A stretch of DNA of 64,000 nucleotides from Dictyostelium discoideum (Eukaryota), in contig CM000152.2 of NCBI GenBank assembly GCA_000004695.1, forward strand, positions 3,040,001 through 3,104,000, in the 5' to 3' direction. The first letter of the stretch is position 1; each line of letters begins with the position of its first letter. This document shows, piece after piece, positions 36,448 through 40,086 of the stretch. The position numbers and the translations under genes are program-made. The notes beneath the pieces were generated by a model that made no database searches, was not told the DNA's origin, and saw only the letters and a list, made by a program, of their open reading frames with translations.

Positions 36448-37678
36448 TTATCTTTTTGAAAAATTACCATTAAAATAAAAAAATGAATCAGAATAAAATG
36501 ATAAATAGTTAAAGTAATTTGTAGATTGGAATGTATAAATAATGTTAAAATCATTTTGTAAATCAATGAATTTATAGGTAACTTGTGAATTATTGATGTC
36601 ATTACCACCATCCATAATCATTAAATAATTAAAATCTGGTGAAAAGAAATAAGGTGTAAATTCAAGTGAAATTCCTGTAGTATTGAATGTAATTAATGTT
36701 GTTACTTGACTATTTTCTAAATTAAATTGATGAATTGAATAACTATTTCCAGACTCGTCATTGGAAATATAATAAACAGTTCCTGAGATTACGAATAATT
36801 CACCGCCATATTTTGAATATGGAAGATTTGAAGTTGGAATTTTATAAGTTTCAATATTCGTTACTTTACCATTCACAATTGGTGTATCAATTGATGTTAA
36901 ATATGGTGTTGCATTATCACCATTACCATAATAAATGAAATACATTTTATTATTTATTGAATCGTAACTTGAAAATACTGTAACTGATGAATTATAATCT
37001 GGTAATTCAATTTGAATTAAGTTACTAATAAAAATAAAAAATTAATAAAAATAAATTAATAAAAAAATAACAACAATTTTTTAAAAAAAAAAAAATTATA
37101 ATTTTATATGTAATTACAGTAAATGAGAATTAAAATCCCAATTTGAAAGTGTAAGATCAGGTAATGAACTTGAATAATCAATAGTTGGAATATAGAAATC
37201 GTTCCCGATTTGAATATATTTTTGATCAGGATTTGAACTTGTTAGATCAACATCAACAACTGGTTTAGACATAGTTGAGAATTGATTACTTTGAAAATTA
37301 TAATCAACTGTTACAAAAAATGTTGGTCCTCCATCCTTTTGTTGATAACTTGATAAAGTTGTAAACTAATATTGAAAAAAAAAAAAATTATTAAATTGTT
37401 AATTTTTTAAAAAAAAAATTTTATTTGGAAATTATAATAATAATAATAATAATAATTACAGTTTGATCAACTAATGAAGAAATATATTTAACAGAAAGTT
37501 GTAAATTTTTTTTACCAGCTTGAATTAAGGGTAATGTATTATTAAAAACTAAATCACCAGTATTAATATCAATCATCATGAATGTATTATCATTAGTGAA
37601 AGTATATATGTATTGGCTTTGACTGTCTACAAAGAATGTGATTAATAAGATTTGCAAGATAATAAATAATATTTTCAT
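36448..37678 (-). CDS. Secreted hypothetical protein. Three exons on the minus strand: 37678-37460, 37365-37118, 37024-36448.
   Basis: Signal peptide MKILFIILQILLITFFVDSQSQ. GTAATT donors and AG acceptors in consistent phases (0, then 2). Ser/Asn/Tyr-rich and beta-rich mature sequence, with no recognised domain. Confidence 0.55.
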
Positions 37679-38455: not shown

Positions 38456-39770
38456 ATGTCAACCAAATCTATTGTTTTATTTGTTTTATTAGCAGTTGCA
38501 ATTGTCTCTGGTGCACATCAATCATGTGTTAAGAGAGTAAATGCACCAACCTCAATTATTAAATCACAACTCCCAAGTGAATATATCGATGAAGATACTT
38601 TACCAACTCAATATGAGTATGTTTTATTACTTAATGAATAATAAATGATTATTATATAAGGTTTTTACAAGTTTCTTTGATTATTCTAATGTTTTATAAT
38701 TTTTTTTTTTTTTTTTTTTTTACCCTAAAATAGTTGGAGAAATATTTCAGGTTCATCATACATCACTATTACCCGTAATCAACATGTAATTATCATCACA
38801 TATATATATATTTATATCCTTTTTCTTATTTTTACAAATTATTAACATACTTCTATAGTTACCACAATGTATGTAATAGGTTTTTTAGGTTTATTTTTAG
38901 GTTTATTATAGGATTTTTAGGATTTTTTATTTGTATTTTTTTAAAAGGATTTCAAGAAAAACAAACAATTAACATTAAAATTTTATTTAATTTTATTTAT
39001 TATTTTGAAAAATTCATTTAGATTGCGGTAGTTGTTGGGCTCATGTAGGTATTTTATTTTAATATTGTTTTAATTCATTTGATTTATAATGATATTAACT
39101 GTTTATTACTATTTATTATTATTGTTTTATTTTAGGGTACCACATCAGCTTTAGGTGATCGTATTAAAATCGGTCGTAAAGGTACTTTCCCAGAAGTTGT
39201 TCTTGCCCCACAAGTTTTATTAAACTGTGCTGGTCCAGATAATACCTGTGGTAAGTAATATGTTTTTTAAAAATAAATTTTATATTAGTAAATGATATCA
39301 TTTACTAATCATTATAAAAATAAAAAATAAAAAATAAAAAATAAAAAATAAAAAATAAAAAATAAAATAAAATAAAATAAAATAAAATAAAATAAAATAA
39401 AAATAAAAAAGATGGTGGTGATCCAACTGAAGCATACGCCTATATGGCCGCTAAAGGTATCACTGATGAAACTTGTGCTCCATATGAAGCAATTGATAAT
39501 GAATGTAATGCTGAAGGTATTTGCAAAAACTGTAACTTTGATTTATCAAACCCAACTGCTGATTGTTTCGCTCAACCAACTTATACTACTTATTTCGTTG
39601 AAGAACACGGTCAAGTTAATGGCTCAGTTGCTATGATGCAAGAAATTTTCGCTCGTGGTCCAATTGCCTGTGGTATGGAAGGTAAATATCAATTTATATT
39701 TTAAAAAATTACTATTATTATTTTATTATTATTTATTTTTCAAATCCAAGCAAAAAAAAATATTAATTAA

Positions 39771-39827
<57 letters not shown>

Positions 39828-40086
39828 TCAAAATTAAATAGTTACTGATGCATTCGAATCATACACAAGTGGTGTTTTCACCTCATCAGTTGGTTCAACT
39901 GGTGAAATTAATCACGAAATCTCAATCATTGGTTGGGGTACTGAAAATGGTGTTGACTATTGGATTGGTCGTAACTCATGGGGTACATATTTTGGTGAAT
40001 TAGGTTTCTTTAGAATTCAACGTGGTATTGATCTTTTATCAATTGAAAGTGCTTGCGATTGGGCTGTTCCAAAGAACTTAGAATAA
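38456..40086 (+). CDS. Cathepsin Z/X-like papain-family cysteine protease. Eight exons including a 10-nt micro-exon: 38456-38616, 38734-38785, 38859-38868, 39022-39045, 39136-39250, 39412-39681, 39842-40086.
   Basis: The spliced product ...[50 protein letters not shown]... aligns residue-for-residue with human cathepsin Z ([50 protein letters not shown]). Downstream motifs are GPIACGME, NHEISIIGWG and YWIGRNSWG, giving the catalytic Cys/His/Asn context. The signal peptide is in exon 1. Confidence 0.85.

Follow-up and report, generated by a model that had tools for sequence, protein, structure and literature searches.

A 10-nucleotide coding micro-exon beside the catalytic cysteine in the annotated cathepsin X/Z-like gene DDB_G0280187 of Dictyostelium discoideum

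Coding micro-exons of animals and plants, for which a limit of 27-30 nt is usually set and which can be as short as a few nucleotides, are often missed by aligners as well as by ab initio gene predictors. On the protein side, the best solved relatives of the gene product dealt with here are human procathepsin X (1DEU; 1.5e-65) and cathepsin X (1EF7; 9.6e-63). Cathepsin X is distinguished by a mini-loop of three residues, Ile24-Pro25-Gln26 (PMC9712828), which walls the S2' site and, together with His23, makes the enzyme a carboxypeptidase (PMC9712828, PMC13257197). In D. discoideum, the counterpart of this loop is encoded by an internal exon of 10 nt, exon 3 of DDB_G0280187 (UniProt Q54VR1), with a canonical AG acceptor and a canonical GT donor. 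Judged from genomic sequence, this exon would be a constitutive coding micro-exon of a seven-exon cathepsin X/Z-like gene and part of the deposited gene model, a reading to which a probability of about 0.93 is assigned. It resembles the coding micro-exons of animals and plants in being very short, internal, bordered by canonical AG and GT dinucleotides and kept among related species. Unlike these, it is presumably constitutive and belongs to a species whose introns are short; unlike neuronal micro-exons, its length is not a multiple of three, so that it offers no simple in-frame alternative cassette, and skipping of exon 3 alone leads to a frameshift and a stop codon.

The gene is located at positions 38456-40086 on the plus strand of the window, that is, of the whole 64-kb stretch of DNA that was analysed (about 22% G+C, its non-coding DNA being extremely rich in A and T), and its seven exons, all on the plus strand, span 1631 nt. 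The ATG, the codons of the signal peptide and those of a short pro-region are on exon 1 (38456-38616, 161 nt), which stops in phase 2 within the Asp codon of YDWRN. Exon 2 (38734-38785, 52 nt) encodes WRNISGSSYITITRNQH, including His71 and Gln70, the latter being, by position, the predicted oxyanion-hole Gln. It is followed by intron 2 (38786-38858, 73 nt, 16% GC, GTAATT...TATAG), the micro-exon TTACCACAAT (38859-38868), which encodes Leu72-Pro73-Gln74 and the first base of Tyr75, and intron 3 (38869-39021, 153 nt, 15% GC, GTATGT...TTTAG). Exon 4 (39022-39044, 23 nt; AT + TGC GGT AGT TGT TGG GCT CAT), preceded by an acceptor AG at 39020-21 and followed by the donor GTAGGT at 39045, adds the last two bases of Tyr75 and the codons of CGSCWAH, in which Cys79 is catalytic; with its 23 nt, exon 4 is therefore also a micro-exon. 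Exon 5 (39136-39250, 115 nt), the translation of which ends in PDNTC, and exon 6 (39412-39681, 270 nt) precede exon 7 (39842-40086, 245 nt including the TAA stop at 40084-40086), on which the catalytic His (INHEIS) and Asn (RNSWG) are located. The six introns measure 73-161 nt at 6-16% G+C; all of them start with GTA, and five end in TAG and one in AAG. The spliced coding sequence is open throughout and specifies 291 amino acids plus stop.

The 10-nt exon is supported by the reading frame. The 3' end of exon 2, ACC CGT AAT CAA CAT (ITRNQH) at 38785, directly ahead of the donor GTAATT, is in phase 0, as had been read in the first-pass annotation, and exon 4 needs one base ahead to form a Tyr codon, which is provided by the last T of TTACCACAAT. 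If exon 2 is joined directly to exon 4, the frame is lost and a stop codon soon follows. Among all AG-exon-GT candidates within 38786-39021 whose length is 1 mod 3 and whose two flanking introns reach 40 nt or more, an open frame was left by 38859-38868 alone; reading through intron 2 was rejected as a candidate, with a stop at 38856-58. The earlier claim that a 10-nt exon at 38859-38868, with an AG acceptor at 38857-38858 and a GTATGT donor at 38869-74, is required to link ITRNQH to CGSCWAH in frame is thus borne out in all these points: both splice sites are present, the exon is the sole frame-preserving insert, and it is contained in the sole exon chain matching the deposited protein. The exon of the catalytic Cys, which had been given as 39022-39045, starts as proposed and ends one base earlier, at 39044; its boundary must be 39044/39136 because 39045-46 is the GT of the donor and 39135-36 reads GG, not AG, and the Gly codon after the His of CGSCWAH begins at 39136. 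A further measure of specificity is obtained from the pattern AG-YTN-CCN-CAR-T-GT, which occurs once on both strands of the 64 kb, at 38857-38870, where shuffled sequences predict 0.01 occurrences, and this single occurrence falls inside the 236-nt interval needing it. The sequence speaks against a longer alternative exon as well as against direct joining of exon 2 and the Cys exon.

Comparison with the annotated gene model, which had been proposed as a check, revealed that the micro-exon is already included in EAL67320.1 / Q54VR1 / DDB_G0280187. The 291-amino acid translation matches EAL67320.1 / Q54VR1 ("peptidase C1A family protein [D. discoideum AX4]") exactly, and identical entries exist from three further D. 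discoideum assemblies. In the assembly GCA_054883475.1 (CM142509.1), which is 100% identical to the window over 4631 nt, the gene called spans the same 1631 nt. An exhaustive spliced-alignment search, restricted to GT...AG introns no shorter than 40 nt but with no limit on exon length, returned exactly one exon chain yielding the deposited protein, and this chain includes 38859-38868; since only one GT-AG chain encodes that protein and this chain has the 10-nt exon, the micro-exon is already contained in the public annotation. The deposited protein is the gene model itself, so that its agreement with the chain shows prior annotation and is no independent proof. Between the deposited model and the exon chain described here there is no difference, gene and 291-amino acid protein being the same. 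The implication of the first-pass annotation that the micro-exon might have escaped gene prediction does not apply here; it is found in the reference model as well as in assemblies of D. discoideum and related species from 2025. In other words, the micro-exon is a real, already known and annotated part of DDB_G0280187, and an existing model has been re-derived.

At the protein level, Q54VR1 is among the proteins detected by mass spectrometry in a bacteriolytic extract of D. discoideum, for which the supplement gives counts and no peptide sequences (PMC7886984); the detection is also cited in PMC11346726. Among the papers searched, DDB_G0280187 was named in the main text of none, and Dictyostelium was found together with "microexon" or "micro-exon" in incidental contexts only, for instance a TopHat option. 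The 32-nt spliced junction had no exact match among JGI metagenome and metatranscriptome contigs. The 20-nt junction core gave four matches in contigs of the same type, none of them from the D. discoideum group: one Polysphondylium-like transcript, two chance matches in unrelated ORFs and one cathepsin X of another AT-rich organism. A protein search with a 97-amino acid segment spanning the junctions yielded no fragment above 73% identity. The metagenome contig MDTG01227141.1 (2640-2716; 24% G+C) encodes a cathepsin X whose active-site segment is contiguous in the DNA, and it has a 20-nt exact match to the spliced D. discoideum junction.

The predicted protein contains the Peptidase_C1 domain (Pfam PF00112; E 5.1e-51) at residues 49-280. 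CGSCWAH with Cys79, INHEIS and RNSWG all have aligned counterparts in the human enzyme and are conserved in all dictyostelid orthologues. In the stretch Q70-H71-L72-P73-Q74-Y75-C76-G-S-C79, the alignment to human cathepsin X is free of gaps, and on this basis Leu72-Pro73-Gln74 corresponds to the human mini-loop. The residues around the junction had been said to match human cathepsin Z exactly; this does not hold, as the human enzyme has Ile24 where Leu72 is found here (1DEU alignment). DDB_G0280187 thus shares with human CTSZ (1EF7, 1DEU) the Peptidase_C1 fold family, the RNQH-[IL] motif with the mini-loop and the alignable regions of the catalytic Cys, His and Asn, while it differs in Leu72 and in aligned stretches that are clearly diverged outside the conserved motifs. 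Only about 28 residues, among them a conserved Cys in [HY]-x-S-C-V-x-R, separate the predicted signal peptide from the mature domain, and residue 38 is the first to be covered by the HMMER alignment to 1DEU. D. discoideum also has a paralogue, ctsZ (Q54R55). With Gln70 and His71 encoded by exon 2 and Cys79 by exon 4, the 10-nt exon sets apart the mini-loop almost exactly. This overlap is read as a coincidence and not as the origin of the loop, because the loop is found in every orthologue, irrespective of where the introns lie.

Within the D. discoideum group, the micro-exon is strictly maintained. TTACCACAAT is invariant, as are the ATAG before it and GTATGTAA after it, in D. dimigraforme, D. 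citrinum, D. firmibasis and the four D. discoideum assemblies compared, to one of which the window is identical. The 161/52/10/23/115/... exon structure was recovered by the spliced-alignment search in two more D. discoideum assemblies and in the same three sister species. Relative to D. discoideum, the exons of the sister species are 89-96% identical (exon 4, 96-100%), and their introns 54-67%; intron 2 measures 66-87 nt there at 65-71% identity, and intron 3 measures 153-272 nt. Micro-exon and splice sites are hence conserved in related genomes amid diverged introns. Independently of the micro-exon, the deposited model of D. dimigraforme places intron 6 (1745/2012) 4 nt upstream of the position in D. 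discoideum (39681/39842), with edges GGTATG/gtaagt...tatag/GAAGTT versus GGTATGGAAG/gtaaat...aatag/TTACT and with the same protein sequence, CGMEVT. If that model is right, the offset would be an apparent intron slide between close relatives.

Recognition of an exon of this size would most likely depend on its flanking introns. An ATTAACA element at 38841-38847 (plus strand), located 10 nt upstream of the AG of the micro-exon, is a likely branch site, and all four group-4 species, D. discoideum, D. dimigraforme, D. citrinum and D. firmibasis, retain it ahead of this exon; TTAAC is also found in intron 3 (38969-38973) and ATTAAC in intron 4. Introns 2 (73 nt) and 3 (153 nt) both offer good donors (GTAATT and GTATGT, respectively), a TTAAC-like element and a TAG acceptor. 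Given the short AT-rich introns of Dictyostelium, each of the flanking introns would probably be recognised across itself, that is, by intron definition. Under such conditions the 10-nt exon would need no exon-definition contacts and would have almost no minimum size, and prior removal of one of the two introns would lessen crowding and steric clash of splicing factors on the 10 nt. Incorporation of the micro-exon would contribute the three mini-loop residues, Leu-Pro-Gln, which lie between the oxyanion-hole Gln and Cys79, together with the base that opens the Tyr codon, and would also restore the frame.

Immediately 3' of the donor of the micro-exon, five TAGG motifs are clustered in 45 nt (38877-38921, plus strand). 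Among the 65 TAGG motifs on the plus strand of the 64-kb window, this is the only place where a stretch of 70 nt contains at least five of them. The cluster may be an intronic splicing element or simply a degenerate tandem repeat with a 9-12-nt unit. From its position, the idea could be derived that exons 3 and 4 (10 + 23 = 33 nt) form a regulated cassette under the control of the TAGG motifs, the joint skipping of which removes the catalytic Cys; this would be compatible with a micro-exon that is constitutive in the main isoform. Such skipping would be in frame, as exon 2 ends and exon 5 starts in phase 0, and the cluster, the densest of the window, is partly conserved. However, degenerate repeats of this kind are common in these introns, the corresponding region of D. 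dimigraforme, D. citrinum and D. firmibasis contains just two to three copies, and alternative splicing is not known to be frequent in Dictyostelium, so that a regulated cassette is considered very unlikely.

A gene product lacking the micro-exon would alternatively be obtained if a donor inside exon 2 (with the exon ending at 38750 or 38774) was joined to 39022, which would give a shorter in-frame protein. Two such joins, RNIS-D-CGSCW and ITIT-H-CGSCW, were indeed found by enumeration to be free of stops. Both would delete RNQHLPQY, i.e., the oxyanion-hole Gln and the mini-loop, which are kept by every orthologue, neither gives the deposited 291-amino acid protein, and the invariance of TTACCACAAT and its splice sites inside diverged introns would be left unexplained; use of these donors instead of the micro-exon appears highly improbable. 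A further alternative, that the gene is a pseudogene in decay, frameshifted between exon 2 and the Cys exon, with the 10-mer there by coincidence, is practically dismissed. Its sole support is that exons 2 and 4 are out of frame when directly joined. Against it, a pattern expected 0.01 times per 64 kb is found exactly where it is needed, the remaining coding sequence is open and 89-96% conserved versus 54-67% for the introns, and the protein has been detected by mass spectrometry, with a 32-kDa record indicating that exons 5-7 are in frame.

Other intron arrangements than in the D. discoideum group are found in more distant dictyostelids. All dictyostelid orthologues encode an active-site motif ending in [S/A]CW, and the intron position of exon 1 (phase 2, in D of DWRN) is common to six of the seven dictyostelid species. 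The 10-nt exon is not present in the orthologues of P. violaceum, T. lacteum, H. album, A. subglobosum and C. fasciculata; for a D. purpureum-like orthologue, the records include no contig that encodes it. Unlike the 10/23 arrangement of D. discoideum, P. violaceum has exons of 35 and 30 nt near the active site, and in T. lacteum, whose orthologue has a single intron, the whole segment is contained in one exon. The residues LPQ occur in all orthologues, including amoebozoan ones derived from transcripts, namely Trinity and Physarum transcripts (EukProt) and JGI contigs; JGI contigs of about 1.1 kb contain the entire 864-nt ORF without introns. Going by these sequence comparisons, the micro-exon is a feature of the D. 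discoideum group, and the residues encoded by it are ancient and obligatory.

Across the seven dictyostelid species, at least nine intron positions were counted within about 26 codons around the active-site Cys; they run T/I, H/L, L, Q, Y, C, H/G, A/T, T, all with good GTA donors and AG acceptors. The turnover or sliding of intron positions near the active site is unusually high. It is possibly of interest for intron evolution and for the recognition of micro-exons in organisms relying on intron definition. It is unlikely that the TAGG cluster is a dedicated element which secures recognition of the 10-nt exon or allows the joint skipping of exons 3 and 4 to give a catalytically dead protein. 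Separately, and within the same low-probability reading, the number of intron positions near the active site and the 4-nt offset between D. discoideum and D. dimigraforme could make the gene a compact natural case for the study of intron gain and sliding. Overall, the significance of the locus is small, the feature being real, ordinary and already known. What has been gained is the confirmation that the deposited DDB_G0280187 model is the only GT-AG model consistent with its own protein, and an example of a 10-nt exon that is recoverable from raw sequence, through homology, by a careful reader; the coincidence of the micro-exon with the mini-loop that defines cathepsin X is of minor value.

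Some minor observations concern the deposited models and the surroundings of the gene. The deposited models of H. album (region 501-2155) and C. fasciculata (region 501-1025) have N-terminal extensions of about 62 and about 27 residues, attached via introns of 1432 and 470 nt, respectively. These extensions are absent from every other orthologue, and an internal Met forms the start of the conserved signal peptide; by comparison of the orthologous sequences, they are probably annotation errors. Intron 5 of the D. discoideum gene (39251-39411) consists almost wholly of (AAAAAATA)n/(AAAATA)n at 6% G+C and measures 97-161 nt among the sister species, and intron 6 (39682-39841), likewise of 6% G+C, holds a long (ATT)n run and measures 132-266 nt among them. 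According to inferred coordinates, the upstream neighbour is a called gene at about 36956-37579 on the minus strand, with 314-345 amino acids and without a Pfam match, and the downstream neighbour is a called gene starting at about 41325 on the plus strand, the product of which, with about 430 amino acids, has a match to FAD_binding_3 and a faint one to squalene epoxidase.
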